Below are positions 4,904 through 31,779 of a DNA stretch of 38,955 bases, in pieces; position 1 is the stretch's first letter; every line of letters begins with the position of its first letter. The position numbers and the translations under genes are program-made. A model generated the notes under the pieces. It was not told the origin of the DNA. It searched no databases and saw only the letters and a list, made by a program, of their open reading frames with translations. This DNA is from Candidatus Nomurabacteria bacterium RIFCSPLOWO2_12_FULL_44_11 (lineage in GTDB: Bacteria > Patescibacteriota > Minisyncoccia > Phycocordibacterales > UBA9973), in assembly GCA_001787125.1 (NCBI GenBank), contig MFVU01000032.1, forward strand, positions 1-38,955. Reading direction: 5' to 3'.

Positions 4904-5735
4904 GCGCCTTCTCGGCTTCTTCTTTCGAGGGCGGTTTCCCGTGCCATTTATAATCGCGTTCCATAAAGCTCACGCCTTTGCCGGGTATAGTGTGGGCAAT
5001 AATCACTGTCGGCTTTTCAAAAACCCCTTTGGCTTCGTTGACCGCTTCATTGAGTGCCTGAAAATCGTGCCCGGAAACTTCAATCACATGCCAGTTGAAG
5101 GCGCGCCATTTGTCCGCCAATGGTTCGAGCGGCATGATATTTTCAGTAAAGCCCTCAATTTGAATATTATTTCGGTCAATAATAGCGATCAGGTTTCGCA
5201 ATCTATATTTCCCCGCGAGCATTATTCCCTCCCAGGAATTTCCTTCATCCAGTTCGCCATCAGACATAAAACAATAAATATATTTATCGGTGCTCATGCC
5301 GTGATCAATCTTCTCCGCAAGCGCCATGCCCACTGATTGGGAGAGCCCGGAACCGAGCGGTCCGGAAGATGTTTCGAGCCAGGGCATATATTCACGGTGC
5401 GGATGCCCTTGCAAGCGAGAACCAAAGTGTCGTAAAGTTTTAAGTTCTTCTACGGGAAAATATCCTGCGTGCGCCATGGTCGCATAATACACTGGGCAGA
5501 TGTGGCCGTTCGAGAGCACTACCCGGTCTCGATCGGGCCAATCTGGATTTTTCGGATCATGCTTCAATACATGGAAGAACCAAAAGGTGAAAATATCCGC
5601 CATGCCGAGGGGTCCCCCGGTATGGCCGGAAGCAGAATATTTGTCTGTTTTAGTAGCTACTAATGATTCAATTATCGAACACCTGATGTCGTTAGCTTTC
5701 TGTTCCAGTTCCTTGATTTTGTGCTCGGTCAACAT
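4872..5735 (-). CDS. transketolase, N-terminal (TPP-binding) subunit
   Basis: SGHTGGPLGMADI, LSNGHICPVYYA and FMSDGELDEGNSWEG (GDG-type TPP motif). I trimmed the start to MLTEHKIKELEQKAN (the track ORF starts at 5768). Overlaps the C subunit by 32 nt. Confidence 0.9.
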   Translation of the reverse strand: MLTEHKIKELEQKANDIRCSIIESLVATKTDKYSASGHTGGPLGMADIFTFWFFHVLKHDPKNPDWPDRDRVVLSNGHICPVYYATMAHAGYFPVEELKTLRHFGSRLQGHPHREYMPWLETSSGPLGSGLSQSVGMALAEKIDHGMSTDKYIYCFMSDGELDEGNSWEGIMLAGKYRLRNLIAIIDRNNIQIEGFTENIMPLEPLADKWRAFNWHVIEVSGHDFQALNEAVNEAKGVFEKPTVIIAHTIPGKGVSFMERDYKWHGKPPSKEEAEKALAELKAHRPI

Positions 5736-28600: not shown

Positions 28601-29596
28601 TTATATCATGATTCTTAATTTATATGCATTGCCGTGTTTCAATAAACCTAAATATGATTGTTTCGATTCTTTTTTAGGATTTTCCCTAATTCGTTTCAGC
28701 ATTTTCCTTTTTGTTGAAGTTCTTAAAACTCTATGACGCGGAAAATGCACCCAACCCAGGAAGTCTACCCCGGAAGCAAGAGTTTTAATAAAGACCTTAT
28801 CAGGATGCAGGTATATATTTAAATAGCTATTTAAATAAGTATTAATTTTTGGTAACAAATTTTCTAAATATCCTTTATCTTCATTTAAAATCACAAAATC
28901 GTCAGCGTATCTGATGTAATATTTCACTTTTAGTTCCCTTTTCATAAACTGGTCAAATTCATTCATATAAACATTTACCAGAAGCTGGGAAGTTAAATTG
29001 CCTAATGGTAATCCTTTGTTAATCCTCTCTGCGATAGCAGAGTTACTTAACATTGTAGAAAAGCTGTCTATCACCTGTCCTAGGAGCCAGAGAGTGTCGG
29101 TGTCAAGGTTGAACCTTGACAATATCTTCTTTAAAACCTGACGATTGATGTTTGCAAAGAATTTTTTGATATCGCATTTTAAAATCCAGCAAGTGCGAGT
29201 GTTATTTTTGGAAACCTTGCGAAACATTTGCCGAAACCTGTTTATGGCCTTATGTGTTCCCTTCTCGACTCGGCAGGAGTATGAGTCATGAATGAATTTT
29301 GAATCGAAATATTCATATAGTTCTTGATATATCAAATGATGCAACAATCTGTCCCTGACAGTTGCCTTGTGTATCTGCCTGGGTTTAGGGTCCGAAATAT
29401 TGAAGGCAATATACTCCCCATGCTTGTAGGTCTTATTTTTTAGGTCGTTGTGTAAATCAAATATATTGTCCATCAACTTTGCTTGAAATAAAATCACATC
29501 TTTTCTGTTCCTTTTATCACGCAAAAATTCCTGCCAGGCCAACAGCAGTTTTTCTATGGTTATGATATTATCGTAAGTATGAATAAATTGTCTCAT
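28601..29596 (-). CDS. DGR-type reverse transcriptase
   Basis: 331 aa, RT domain only (no maturase, endonuclease or RNase H region). Contains ..DPKPRQIHKATVRDRLLHHL.., the LPLGNLTSQ motif ([I/L]GxxxSQ, typical of DGR RTs), the catalytic YADD in IRYADDFVIL, and GVDFLGW. Confidence 0.9.
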   Translation of the reverse strand: MRQFIHTYDNIITIEKLLLAWQEFLRDKRNRKDVILFQAKLMDNIFDLHNDLKNKTYKHGEYIAFNISDPKPRQIHKATVRDRLLHHLIYQELYEYFDSKFIHDSYSCRVEKGTHKAINRFRQMFRKVSKNNTRTCWILKCDIKKFFANINRQVLKKILSRFNLDTDTLWLLGQVIDSFSTMLSNSAIAERINKGLPLGNLTSQLLVNVYMNEFDQFMKRELKVKYYIRYADDFVILNEDKGYLENLLPKINTYLNSYLNIYLHPDKVFIKTLASGVDFLGWVHFPRHRVLRTSTKRKMLKRIRENPKKESKQSYLGLLKHGNAYKLRIMI

Positions 29597-29966
29597 ATCG
29601 TTTTACCCCCCCCCAGCGCCGACGGCGCTTCTAAAAGCAAAAACGGCCTACACTCTTTGGTTTAAAGTATATAATGATTTCCCTAAAGCGCATCGTTACG
29701 TATTGGGTGGAAAAATTGAGGACTACTTTCTGGGTCTTTTAGAAAATATTTTCATTTCAATTTATCTACCTCCAGAAACAAAAGTTTCTCGCCTCACCAT
29801 AGCAATATCAAAATTGGATGGCATAAAATTCTTTTTACAAATAGCTTGGGAAAACAAATGCATCCCGAATGAAAAGTATTCTACCCTTTCCGAACACTTG
29901 CAAGAAATCGGCAGAATGCTCGGTGGCTGGAAAAAAGGACTTGAAAAGAAAACTCCTCGGCCGTGA
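29579..29966 (+). pseudogene. Avd-like four-helix-bundle protein gene, frame-interrupted at a C9 tract (opposite strand to RT/TR)
   Basis: Track ORF 29703..29966 (..KLDGIKFFLQIAWENKCIPNEKYSTLSEHLQEIGRMLGGWKKGL) matches the four-helix-bundle (23S-rRNA-IVS/Avd-related) family but lacks its N-terminus. The upstream in-frame sequence (..LLKAKTAYTLWFKVYNDFPKAHRYVLGGKIEDYF) continues the homology without a start codon. An ATG at 29579, 7 nt after TGaTATTAT (29563..29571), is in frame only if the C9 run (29606..29614) were C8 or C11. That change would give a 128-aa protein. Confidence 0.6.
29606..29614. repeat. C9/G9 homopolymer at the avd-like/RT junction
   Basis: Nine consecutive C on the + strand. 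On the minus strand the G9 ends 9 nt upstream of the RT ATG (GGGGGGGGGTAAAACGATATG). It is flanked by the hairpin AGCGCC-gac-GGCGCT (29615..29629). Confidence 0.9.
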
Positions 29967-29990
29967 GGTAGAGGAGAAAAACAAGAGTTT

Positions 29991-30097
29991 CGAGAGAACA
30001 CCCGATTGTCGGCGTTCCACGTGTTCGGGTTCTCGACGGAGTTGGCATTGACGTTCCAACCGCCGTCGTTCCAGTTCACGTTCACGGCACGGAGAAC
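29991..30097 (-). repeat. DGR template repeat (TR)
   Basis: 107 nt. The sense (minus) strand encodes VLRAVNVNWNDGGWNVNANSVENPNTWNADNRVFSR with ten AAY codons and 24 adenines in total. It aligns without gaps to 30496..30602. Confidence 0.9.
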
Positions 30098-30392
30098 CAG
30101 TGTTATCGTACATAAGATCATCTGTATCACTGCCGACCCAAGCACAAACTAAATGTCAGGGATCGTGCTGTATTTTATTTTGGACTTAGAAGTCCACCAA
30201 TATTATGCACCAATTCTTGTTATTTTTTGAAAAAACTTTTTATACTCTTGCGTAAGGCAAAAAGAAAACAGCCCAACGCAACTCTCACAAAAAATTTCTT
30301 AAGACCATGACGCGAAAGCCGTAACCGTCGCGTAGCACATGATTTCAAAAACATTGTATCAAATTACAAAATTAAATGAAGTAAAAATAGAA

Positions 30393-30424
30393 GACACCCG
30401 GCCCGCCGAAGCGAACCGAGTGTC
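30393..30424 (-). terminator. intrinsic terminator of the DGR target gene (14-bp stem, UUCG loop, U-rich tail)
   Basis: Minus-strand RNA GACACUCGGUUCGC-UUCG-GCGGGCCGGGUGUC followed by UUCUAUUUUUACUUCAUUU, 23 nt after the stop codon. Three pairs are G.U on the minus strand and C/A mismatches on the plus strand. Confidence 0.65.
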
Positions 30425-30446
30425 CAAGAGTCCCAGAACCCAAGGG

Positions 30447-31151
30447 TCAGCTTGCGGCTGATTCCTGAGGCACTGAGGATACGAGCGATGAATTGCGAGA
30501 GAACACCCGATCGTCGGCGCTCCACGTGAGCGGGCTCTCGACGGAGAGGGCATTGACGTACCAACCGCCGTCGTACCAGTGCACGAGCACGGCACGGAGA
30601 ACGCCGTTCTGGTCGCGAACGTAGAAGATGTTCGCGCGCCCGTCGTGGAGCAAGACGCCCTCTCCGCCGTTCGGCTGAGCCGCCATCATGGCGAAGACGT
30701 CGGTGAGAGCGACTTCCGTCTTACCCTCGCCGATCGCATCGAGGATCGGCTTGTCGACCGAGCGCTTGGTGAGTCGGGAGTAGCGGAGCTCGGTCGCGCG
30801 CCCGGGTTCTTCGATCTTGCCGAGCACCCACGCCCGGAAGTTGTCGCCGAGGTAGCTGATCTTCACCGGTGCCCTGCGGCTGGTGTCGACCACGAACTTC
30901 TCGGAAGCAACGAAGGCCCAGGTGTTCATCGGCGCGATGTAGGTACCGACGAGCTCGAGGAGAGGCGTCGGAGCGGGCGTCGCGACGGGTTCCTCGACAA
31001 CCAACGAAGCGTACATGGTCTCTGCCATGCGGTTACGCTTCGAGTTGACGATCTGTTGCACAAGAGCGGCACTGAAGCCGGCCTTGTCGAGGACCAATGC
31101 AAATTCATGCATCGCTCCACAGCTCATGTCACACACGCGGTCTGCGCTCAT
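30447..31151 (-). CDS. DGR variable (target) protein, 234 aa, VR at C-terminus
   Basis: AGGAG 8 nt upstream of the ATG. The C-terminus ..VLRAVLVHWYDGGWYVNALSVESPLTWSADDRVFSRNSSLVSS.. is the diversified copy of the TR-encoded peptide. No signal peptide or TM helix. The N-terminal ~175 aa has no family that I recognise. Confidence 0.85.
   Translation of the reverse strand: MSADRVCDMSCGAMHEFALVLDKAGFSAALVQQIVNSKRNRMAETMYASLVVEEPVATPAPTPLLELVGTYIAPMNTWAFVASEKFVVDTSRRAPVKISYLGDNFRAWVLGKIEEPGRATELRYSRLTKRSVDKPILDAIGEGKTEVALTDVFAMMAAQPNGGEGVLLHDGRANIFYVRDQNGVLRAVLVHWYDGGWYVNALSVESPLTWSADDRVFSRNSSLVSSVPQESAAS
30496..30602 (-). repeat. DGR variable repeat (VR)
   Basis: 95/107 identical to the TR. 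The 12 differences correspond to TR + strand T (sense-strand A) at 30007, 30015, 30024, 30025, 30030, 30042, 30043, 30055, 30070, 30076, 30081 and 30082. Confidence 0.9.
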
Positions 31152-31352
31152 GACTGGTCTCCTTTCGGGAGATGCTAGAGGACGACGACTGTCGCCATAG
31201 CTTTTAATTTACAAGATTTTATAAGCTAAAAGCTATGGCAAATCTAGTATTTTCTCGCAGTTTATAAAAGAACCTATATATCCTTATATTATACACCCAA
31301 CAGGCATTTTTGTCAATGTTTTGCTTTTTATTATTTATGGTATATTAGATGT

Positions 31353-31571
31353 ATGAAGAAATTTAATTTACAAAACATTGTTTGGAAAGAAGGGAAATAT
31401 TATGTTTCTCAGTGTTTGAATGTTGATATTTCAAGCTTTGGTAAAACCAGAAATGAATCGCTAAAGAATTTAAGCGAAGCTTTGGATCTTTACTTTGAGG
31501 ACTCTAAAATTCAAAAAATACAAGAGGTGAAAGGTGCGCAACTTGTCCCTTTTGTGTTTAACTATGCCTAA
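31353..31571 (+). CDS. hicB: HicB-like antitoxin
   Basis: 72 aa. NIVWKEGKYYVSQCLNVDISSFGKTRNESLKNLSEALDLYFED. ATG lies 6 nt after TGgTATATT (31338..31346). Confidence 0.7.
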   Translation: MKKFNLQNIVWKEGKYYVSQCLNVDISSFGKTRNESLKNLSEALDLYFEDSKIQKIQEVKGAQLVPFVFNYA

Positions 31572-31779
31572 ACTTTTATCTTCTACGCAAGTAGTAAAAG
31601 TTTTAGAAAATAACGGTTTCGTGTTCATTTCTCAAAAAGGTAGTCATGTAAAATTTAGAAAACTGGGAATAAAGAAGCGAACTGTCATTGTCCCAGCGGG
31701 CAGAAAAGAAATTCCTATGGGTACTCTTCATTCAATAATGCGACAAGCTTCTCTAACAAAAGAGGACTTCGGAATTTAA
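31564..31779 (+). CDS. hicA: HicA-family toxin
   Basis: MPKLLSSTQVVKVLENNGFVFISQKGSHVKFRK..TVIVPAGRKEIPMGTLHSIMRQASL. Start trimmed to 31564, overlapping the hicB stop by 8 nt. Confidence 0.8.
   Translation: MPKLLSSTQVVKVLENNGFVFISQKGSHVKFRKLGIKKRTVIVPAGRKEIPMGTLHSIMRQASLTKEDFGI

Follow-up and report, generated by a model that had tools for sequence, protein, structure and literature searches.

A Chromosomal Diversity-Generating Retroelement of Candidatus Nomurabacteria and the Simple-Sequence Repeat in Its avd Gene

Contig MFVU01000032.1 of Candidatus Nomurabacteria bacterium RIFCSPLOWO2_12_FULL_44_11 (assembly GCA_001787125.1; the whole stretch of 38,955 forward-strand nucleotides is referred to below as the window) contains a pair of 107-nt repeats located close to a reverse transcriptase (RT) gene. 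A preliminary description, made from the nucleotide sequence, took this locus for a complete diversity-generating retroelement (DGR), i.e., an element in which adenines of a template repeat (TR) direct mutagenesis of a variable repeat (VR) in a target gene. Two questions arise: does the locus belong with DGRs and, if it does, is there anything in it that may control when the target is diversified? We assign the locus, with high confidence, to chromosomal DGRs of a Patescibacteria (Candidate Phyla Radiation, CPR) clade, carried by a Candidatus Nomurabacteria-type genome and expected to operate by a Bordetella-like mechanism; the gating of its accessory gene avd by a simple-sequence repeat (SSR) is the less certain part of this assignment. 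On the minus strand, the elements follow each other in the order target gene with the VR at its 3′ end, terminator, extended -10 element, leader, TR, stem-loop with a U-tract, avd (on the opposite strand) and RT. Since the window also contains housekeeping genes and tRNAs, the element is chromosomal.

The repeat pair, the reverse transcriptase and related loci

The TR (positions 29991..30097, minus strand, 107 nt) and the VR (30496..30602, minus strand) align without gaps over their entire length with an offset of 505. Both a re-alignment and a separate repeat search recovered the pair exactly as it had first been reported, and no third copy was found within the whole window. The VR codes for residues 184-219 of a 234-aa open reading frame (ORF), the target gene. 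On the sense (minus) strand, the TR consists of 24 A, 31 C, 32 G and 20 T. The two repeats differ at 12 positions, each of which is an A in the TR sense strand, and none of the 83 non-A positions differs; the hypergeometric probability of all 12 mismatches falling on the 24 A positions is 1.1e-9. Twenty of the adenines are located in ten AAY codons (eight AAC and two AAT) that are in the frame of the 234-aa ORF. In the VR, nine of the ten codons specify another residue (N to L, H, Y, Y, L, S, L, S and D), and the remaining four TR adenines, outside of AAY codons, are unaltered. All these counts agree with the ones given earlier.

The base just past the 3′ boundary of the repeats is also different, being A at 29990 next to the TR and C at 30495 next to the VR. 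The 3′ ends read ...TCTCG-AAACT in the TR and ...TCTCG-CAATTC in the VR, a fixed difference across the family that is conserved in ca. 30 out of 39 related loci. It follows that the A/C pair at 29990/30495 does not result from mutagenesis and that the 107-nt boundaries had been drawn correctly. The VR junction occupies positions 30490..30508 of the minus strand (GGGTGTTCTCTCG then CAATTC), and both the VR-specific CAATTC and the TR-specific AAACT come after a GC-rich block common to the two repeats. By analogy, the distinction between the VR and TR ends resembles that between IMH (initiation of mutagenic homing) and IMH*, and it may have the same function.

The RT gene (28601..29596, minus strand) codes for a 331-aa protein with a match to RVT_1 (4e-24) and begins 394 nt beyond the end of the TR. 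The LGNLTSQ and YADD motifs ascribed to it in the preliminary description are indeed present in this ORF. The best match of the protein among solved structures is bRT, the DGR RT of the Bordetella phage (8ub7; E 2e-34, 122 bits, residues 7-305), with which its PKPR arginine, [ILV]GxxxSQ and YxDD motifs align. One can imagine that an ordinary duplication diverged, by chance, beside the RT of a group II intron, a retron or a defence system, and it may be noted in this respect that the top NCBIfam model for the RT is a group II RT/maturase, with a score of 139.6 bits that is far under the 300-bit cut-off. Against solved structures, however, group II, retron-type and defence RTs score weaker (E 5e-15 or worse; group II, 5e-15; retron-type, 1e-14), with group II and retron RTs reaching at most 59 bits vs. 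122 bits for bRT. Sequence comparison therefore supports the placement of the protein among DGR-type RTs, closest to bRT. The chance-duplication explanation is also at odds with the restriction of all 12 mismatches to adenines (P 1e-9), with the presence of an avd gene, with the repetition of the same pattern in about 37 related loci and with population variation that is restricted to TR-A positions. These tests refute it, and we assign it a negligible probability.

The population variation was revealed by comparison with a second assembly of the same strain (locus L011, target protein P0123). Over 2.8 kb, it differs from the window by 13 nt, all of them in the VR at TR-A positions; the 83 non-A positions are unchanged, and so is the TR. 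At the protein level, nine target residues differ, all of them derived from TR AAY codons. VR variation between these assemblies is hence confined to A-templated positions, and the locus passes the refuting test that the preliminary description had set for related genomes or reads. The TR, the RT, the leader and the avd domain are identical across same-strain assemblies. Two VR alleles were seen, both at one field site. As far as can be judged from assembled sequences, same-strain VR variation speaks for mutagenic homing in this population. In L011, a run of N that marks a scaffold gap (positions 5110-5209, within a duplicated TR) is an assembly artefact.

The layout of target, TR, reversed avd and RT is found in about 40 out of 80 related genome loci. 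TR/VR pairs of 105-120 nt with an offset of 440-490 are present in about 37 genome loci, and their mismatches are almost all at TR adenines. A metagenome scan with the RT returned relatives of at most 81% identity, which we used as an independent replication set. The DGR-type RT match, the A-only TR/VR differences, the location of the VR at the 3′ end of an ORF, the avd gene and the same-strain VR variation all support the identification of the locus as a DGR that the preliminary description had put forward. Its designation as complete is borne out in part: the core features are all there, but avd had been overlooked and, as described below, it is out of frame in the window.

The avd gene and its simple-sequence repeat

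The avd (accessory variability determinant) gene is located between TR and RT, at positions 29579..29966 of the plus strand, i.e., antisense to both of them. Its product matches Pfam bAvd (4.6e-15, 56.5 bits, with a cut-off of 40) and, less well, NCBIfam DivGenRetAVD. The avd and RT genes are divergent, and they overlap by 18 nt at their start codons. A phmmer search with Avd against the Protein Data Bank (PDB) yielded no Avd match because the protein is too divergent.

Inside the 5′ coding end of avd there is a tract of nine cytosines (C9; 29606..29614, plus strand), which is poly-G on the RT strand and lies 9 nt upstream of the RT ATG. It is the sole G/C run of at least 7 in the 39-kb window. 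The tract is situated between the ATG at 29579 and the sequence coding for the Avd domain, and in this assembly, the domain is not in the frame of that ATG. Translation from the ATG would reach a stop after 28 codons with C9 and after 18 codons with C10; C8 would yield an intact Avd of 128 aa. The product of the C8 allele is identical to NCBI protein OGI82934.1, which is labelled Candidatus Nomurabacteria. Among same-strain assemblies, ten have C9, two have C8 (L006 and the NCBI contig encoding OGI82934.1) and one has C10 (L010), and these changes in tract length are the only indels across 2.8 kb of otherwise identical DNA. Likewise, the tract is 8 in L015 and 11 in L020, and the flanking sequences of this pair are 99% identical.

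An SSR is present at this avd site in 96 out of 104 related loci from the two locus sets, in the form of poly-G of 7-15, (GA)n, (GT)n or (TC)n. Across 848 kb from related genome loci, 27 of the 33 G/C runs of at least 8, and three of the four long dinucleotide repeats, fall at the avd site. An upstream ATG in frame with the Avd domain was found at 26 of the 96 loci with an SSR and at all eight loci without one (Fisher p 7e-5). At the SSR loci, the nearest upstream ATG is in frame in the 26 cases just mentioned and in the two other frames in 34 and 31 cases, with four ambiguous loci and one without an ATG; the 26 in-frame cases do not depart from the expectation of 1/3 (binomial p 0.23). Avd relatives of full length start with M-x(3-19)-PP(P)-, and other assemblies of close relatives yield truncated ORF calls only. 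The distribution of in-frame ATGs and the tract polymorphism indicate that the repeat is inside the avd coding region and that its length sets the frame.

In its sequence, the avd repeat thus has the signature of a contingency gene. Similar to the phase-variable SSR genes of Campylobacter, Neisseria and Haemophilus, it consists of a poly-G/C run of 7-15 or a dinucleotide repeat in a 5′ coding region, the reading frame depends on its length, which varies among near-identical genomes, and no other such tract exists in 39 kb. Unlike those genes, avd codes for a component of targeted hypermutation rather than for a surface structure or a methyltransferase, and its host is an uncultivated Patescibacterium. 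We consider the avd SSR a candidate phase-variation switch of the mutator, whose switching is predicted from the sequence. A literature search for reports linking DGRs with such repeats found none; Paul et al. 2017 was outside its reach.

One can propose the following scheme, whose first three steps are modelled on the Bordetella phage paradigm. An RNA composed of the leader, the TR and the downstream hairpin would be bound by an RT-Avd complex, which would copy it into cDNA while placing random nucleotides opposite adenines. This cDNA would replace the VR up to the VR-specific 3′ junction. The ten AAY codons would be recoded as a consequence, altering alternate positions of two adjacent β-strands and the loops that follow them. 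With less certainty, the supply of Avd, and hence mutagenic homing, may be gated by the hypermutable SSR near the 5′ end of the avd coding sequence; the window would then represent the OFF length (C9), and C8 would restore the frame. Extended to this large clade of Patescibacteria DGRs, the proposal is that avd is a contingency gene whose poly-C of 7-15, (TC)n, (CA)n or (GA)n stochastically toggles Avd and, with it, the whole adenine-mutagenesis machine, in which case a subpopulation alone would diversify the target at any time and a hypermutator would be placed under a hypermutable switch. We advance this general form tentatively, holding it to be slightly short of evenly balanced.

Several observations weigh against this scheme. 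Out-of-frame avd is the state of this assembly and of most assemblies of the strain, and the element may be mostly silent. In a second lineage, eight of ten assemblies have C10 and the other two read C11 through a base substitution, with no indel polymorphism. All tract lengths are those of an assembly consensus, and homopolymers in short-read assemblies can be wrong. The match of Avd to DivGenRetAVD (67 bits) is under the 80-bit cut-off of that model. The exact target protein of the window is present on 22 contigs from several groundwater samples, and such a predominance of one VR allele points to infrequent homing. Finally, the RNA-protein interactions, the priming site, the promoter and the RNA 3′ end of the scheme are ones that we infer.

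The same observations can be accommodated if the DGR is real and the repeat is not an ON/OFF switch at the DNA level. Avd may be made constitutively at a low level from any tract length, through transcriptional slippage or through ribosomal frameshifting of tRNA-Pro on the C-run (or an equivalent event on (TC)n), or else the purine-rich tract may serve as a leader or ribosome-binding site of the RT. G/C runs of 8-11 are long enough for slippage, which counts in favor of constitutive Avd. The near-random frame of upstream ATGs (26/34/31; p 0.23 vs. 1/3) is as one would expect in this case, and a need for Avd sits uneasily with the existence of two lineages that are mostly out of frame. The window has the G-run 9 nt upstream of the RT ATG. 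On the other hand, the tract differs in length between identical or 99% identical DNAs (8, 9 or 10 in the window strain; 8 vs. 11 in L015 and L020), and all eight loci lacking an SSR have an in-frame ATG. A sequence-specific function in RNA or ribosome binding is made less likely by the lack of conservation of the repeat unit (G, GA, GT or TC) and by a spacing between the repeat and the RT start that ranges from 4 to ca. 40 nt across loci; on the same grounds, we rejected a Shine-Dalgarno or G-quadruplex role of the G-run. On balance, we view an explanation without a DNA-level switch as rather unlikely, though less so than the one that follows.

It may also be supposed that the DGR is decaying or has been silenced, with avd being a frameshifted pseudogene and the VR differences being relics. 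The lack of an in-frame avd start in the window and the identity of the VR on 22 contigs from several samples are in line with this supposition. Yet all assemblies share the same intact RT, TR, leader RNA and avd domain, the in-frame C8 occurs in two assemblies, one of them an NCBI genome, and two VR alleles exist together at one field site. Furthermore, an out-of-frame repeat recurs in about 70 of the 96 related loci with the avd domain otherwise conserved, which is not the pattern that independent decay would produce. Decay is, in our opinion, quite improbable, and a live DGR with a candidate switch in avd is the reading that we carry forward.

RNA elements around the template repeat

A putative promoter of the TR-containing RNA is an extended -10 element, TGaTACAAT, at positions 30353..30361 of the minus strand (TG at 30361-30360, TACAAT at 30358-30353), from which transcription would start at about 30346. 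The pattern TG.TATA.T is conserved in an alignment of 39 spacers between VRs and TRs. Another promoter-like site, at 30231-30202, was dropped, being located inside the covarying leader.

The region between the presumed start and the TR (30098..30346, minus strand), directly 5′ of the latter, is predicted to form a structured leader RNA of ca. 250 nt with seven helices. RNAalifold applied to 35 loci predicted 49 leader pairs, of which 41 are supported by compensatory changes. In a check of these pairs, 96% of the cells were able to pair, compared to 41-48% in slid controls, and none of the 500 shuffles reached the observed values. When loci were picked by RT similarity alone, only a minority carried the leader sequence motifs, with all three being present in six out of 51. 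The leader is therefore tied to this target family rather than to the RT clade as a whole.

The 5′ part of the leader was matched by the Rfam RT-9 model (RF03080) over all of its positions 1-92 with 30.2 bits, a score that does not reach the gathering score of 46.1, and searches of 12 relatives with this model gave no matches. As with RT-9 and RT-10, a structured RNA adjoins an RT gene here; unlike RT-9, the conserved structure is far larger (seven helices, ca. 250 nt) and is located between the VR and the TR. According to Weinberg et al. 2017 (PMC5737381), RT-10 is part of the BPP-1 DGR, and other RT motifs, RT-9 among them, are suspected to belong to DGRs. In two related loci, a different RNA, LOOT (RF03000), was detected above threshold a few kb from the DGR (L028, 4250-4380; L148, 4551-4665).

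On the other side of the TR, 15 nt after it, there is a stem-loop CTCCTC/GAGGAG followed by a U-tract (29943..29976, minus strand), with the avd stop codon in the loop. Such hairpins were counted by folding each sequence separately, with controls. A GC-rich hairpin with a T-tract, whose stem comes in 71 different sequences, is found 14-25 nt past the TR at 89 out of 100 related loci, compared to ten out of 100 shuffled sequences, none of 100 reverse complements and 53 out of 287 other windows. RNAalifold predicted no pairs in the 178 nt downstream of the TR because the hairpin is misaligned there. Folding of the whole putative TR RNA gave a z of only -2.2. Avd-binding stem-loops just downstream of the TR were reported for 207 of 278 DGRs in a preprint by Handa et al., and, by analogy, the hairpin described here is probably an Avd-binding stem-loop, a terminator of the TR RNA or both. 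The U-tract may mark the end of the RNA. From the leader and the hairpin, we infer that the DGR RNA is a discrete molecule of ca. 400 nt consisting of the leader, the TR and the hairpin.

The target gene and comparison with known systems

The target gene (30447..31151, minus strand, 234 aa) carries the VR at its 3′ end. A match to the consensus σ70 promoter, TTGACA-17-TATAAT (12/12), found by pattern only, is located upstream at 31288..31316 (minus strand), and a strong intrinsic terminator with a 15-bp stem followed by a T-run is located at 30392..30425 (minus strand) and is conserved in the spacer alignment. Downstream of the promoter, in the putative 5′ untranslated region (UTR) of the target gene, positions 31194-31239 form an inverted repeat with 21-nt arms (86% complementary) and a 4-nt loop. 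On its upstream side, the target promoter is adjoined by a two-gene module with HicB-like and HicA-like products (31353-31779, plus strand; HicA toxin domain, 4e-17, with a 72-aa ORF before HicA).

Sequence and profile searches with the target protein against Pfam, NCBIfam and PDB produced no match. It has more than 466 homologues of 220-245 aa, which belong to Patescibacteria wherever they are labelled and are without a Pfam domain. Their alignment shows a conserved scaffold, GVLRAVxVxWxxxGWxVxAxSVExPxxWxxGxxVFSRNS, whose variable positions match the TR AAY codons exactly. In an AlphaFold model of the protein (pLDDT 86.5), the VR residues are on strands 185-193 and 196-203. Variable residues alternate on these two adjacent strands (189/191/193 and 198/200/202) and extend into the following loops; as judged from the modelled secondary structure, this suggests that they form one variable face. 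A Foldseek search with the model against PDB and BFVD returned nothing better than E 0.3 (best PDB E 0.68), and C-type lectins (3gpr, 3whd) were among the matches only at a weak TM of 0.3-0.4. No signal peptide or membrane segment was evident on reading the sequence. The target is apparently a small non-membrane protein that matches no known fold.

The base composition of the target gene is different from that of its surroundings. The GC content of the gene is 62% and its GC content at third codon positions (GC3) is 0.80, compared to a GC3 of 0.40 for the RT and 0.48-0.50 for neighbor genes. The transcription unit including UTRs (30400-31200) is 62% GC vs. ca. 40% in the flanks. Target GC exceeds that of the flanks in 77 out of 78 related loci, with a median excess of 12.5 points and a median GC3 of 0.69 vs. 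0.40 for the RT. The excess covers the whole target gene and is highest in the VR. We rejected adenine depletion by the RT as its source, since the gene in the window is as poor in T as in A; averaged over the family, the base that is depleted outside of the VR is T rather than A.

Out of the 78 homologous target genes scored, about half (44) have neither an RT nor an avd nor a TR within 6 kb. Two loci, L036 and L044, have two paralogous targets each, and the L044 copies differ at all four bases, not at A alone. Such distant and paralogous genes may be remote or orphan targets. One protein, P0012, appears to be a target joined to TR-downstream sequence, with a VR that is all Asn as in the TR, and is an assembly artefact.

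Compared to the prototype, the mtd-avd-TR-brt DGR of Bordetella phage BPP-1, the locus has a homologous RT (over ca. 300 residues, with the PKPR arginine, [ILV]GxxxSQ and YxDD aligned), an accessory protein of the Avd four-helix-bundle type, adenine-specific TR-to-VR differences, a VR at the 3′ end of the target gene, distinct VR and TR 3′ junctions that may follow the logic of IMH and IMH*, and a stem-loop just downstream of the TR. It differs in being chromosomal and not phage-borne. Its avd gene, which contains an SSR, follows the TR, is encoded on the other strand and diverges from the RT; the RNA has its large structured domain upstream of the TR instead of in the TR-RT spacer; a terminator-like hairpin immediately follows the TR; and the 234-aa target has no recognizable match to C-type lectins.

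There is, in contrast, no difference in kind between this locus and the DGRs known from CPR/Patescibacteria. These have groundwater Patescibacteria as hosts, small targets without a recognizable domain or transmembrane segment, and an order and orientation of avd and TR that are unlike those of Bordetella. Moreover, the surveys also mined this field site (Rifle-type ANAN16 and RIFCSP assemblies). In a CPR set, Wu et al. 2018 (PMC5758913) describe an architecture, B3, that accounts for 90%, as well as VR classes of unknown fold, and Roux et al. 2021 (PMC8144416) describe a DGR clade 2 that is confined to Patescibacteria and has targets without recognizable domains. Given these descriptions, the locus is a standard member of an abundant, published Patescibacteria (CPR) DGR clade. 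The portions of these two papers that were covered, and term searches, contained no mention of the avd repeat, of the leader RNA structure or of the target GC excess.

Since CPR genomes of such aquifers are already known to be rich in DGRs, the assignment of one more locus adds little in itself. New leads of moderate added value come from the avd repeat, the leader RNA and the GC excess, and the first two, along with the target fold, bear on how DGR mutagenesis is controlled and on what it is aimed at. The compact RNA of ca. 400 nt, with its leader, TR and hairpin arranged unlike the Bordetella RNA, could serve to reconstitute a CPR DGR in vitro. The target family of about 230 aa (more than 466 proteins), with its confidently modelled fold that has no match, may provide variable binding proteins with a new scaffold. 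If the repeat does gate Avd, one would understand why metagenomes usually show static VRs, and a natural ON/OFF handle on the diversification of targets in these bacteria would be available.

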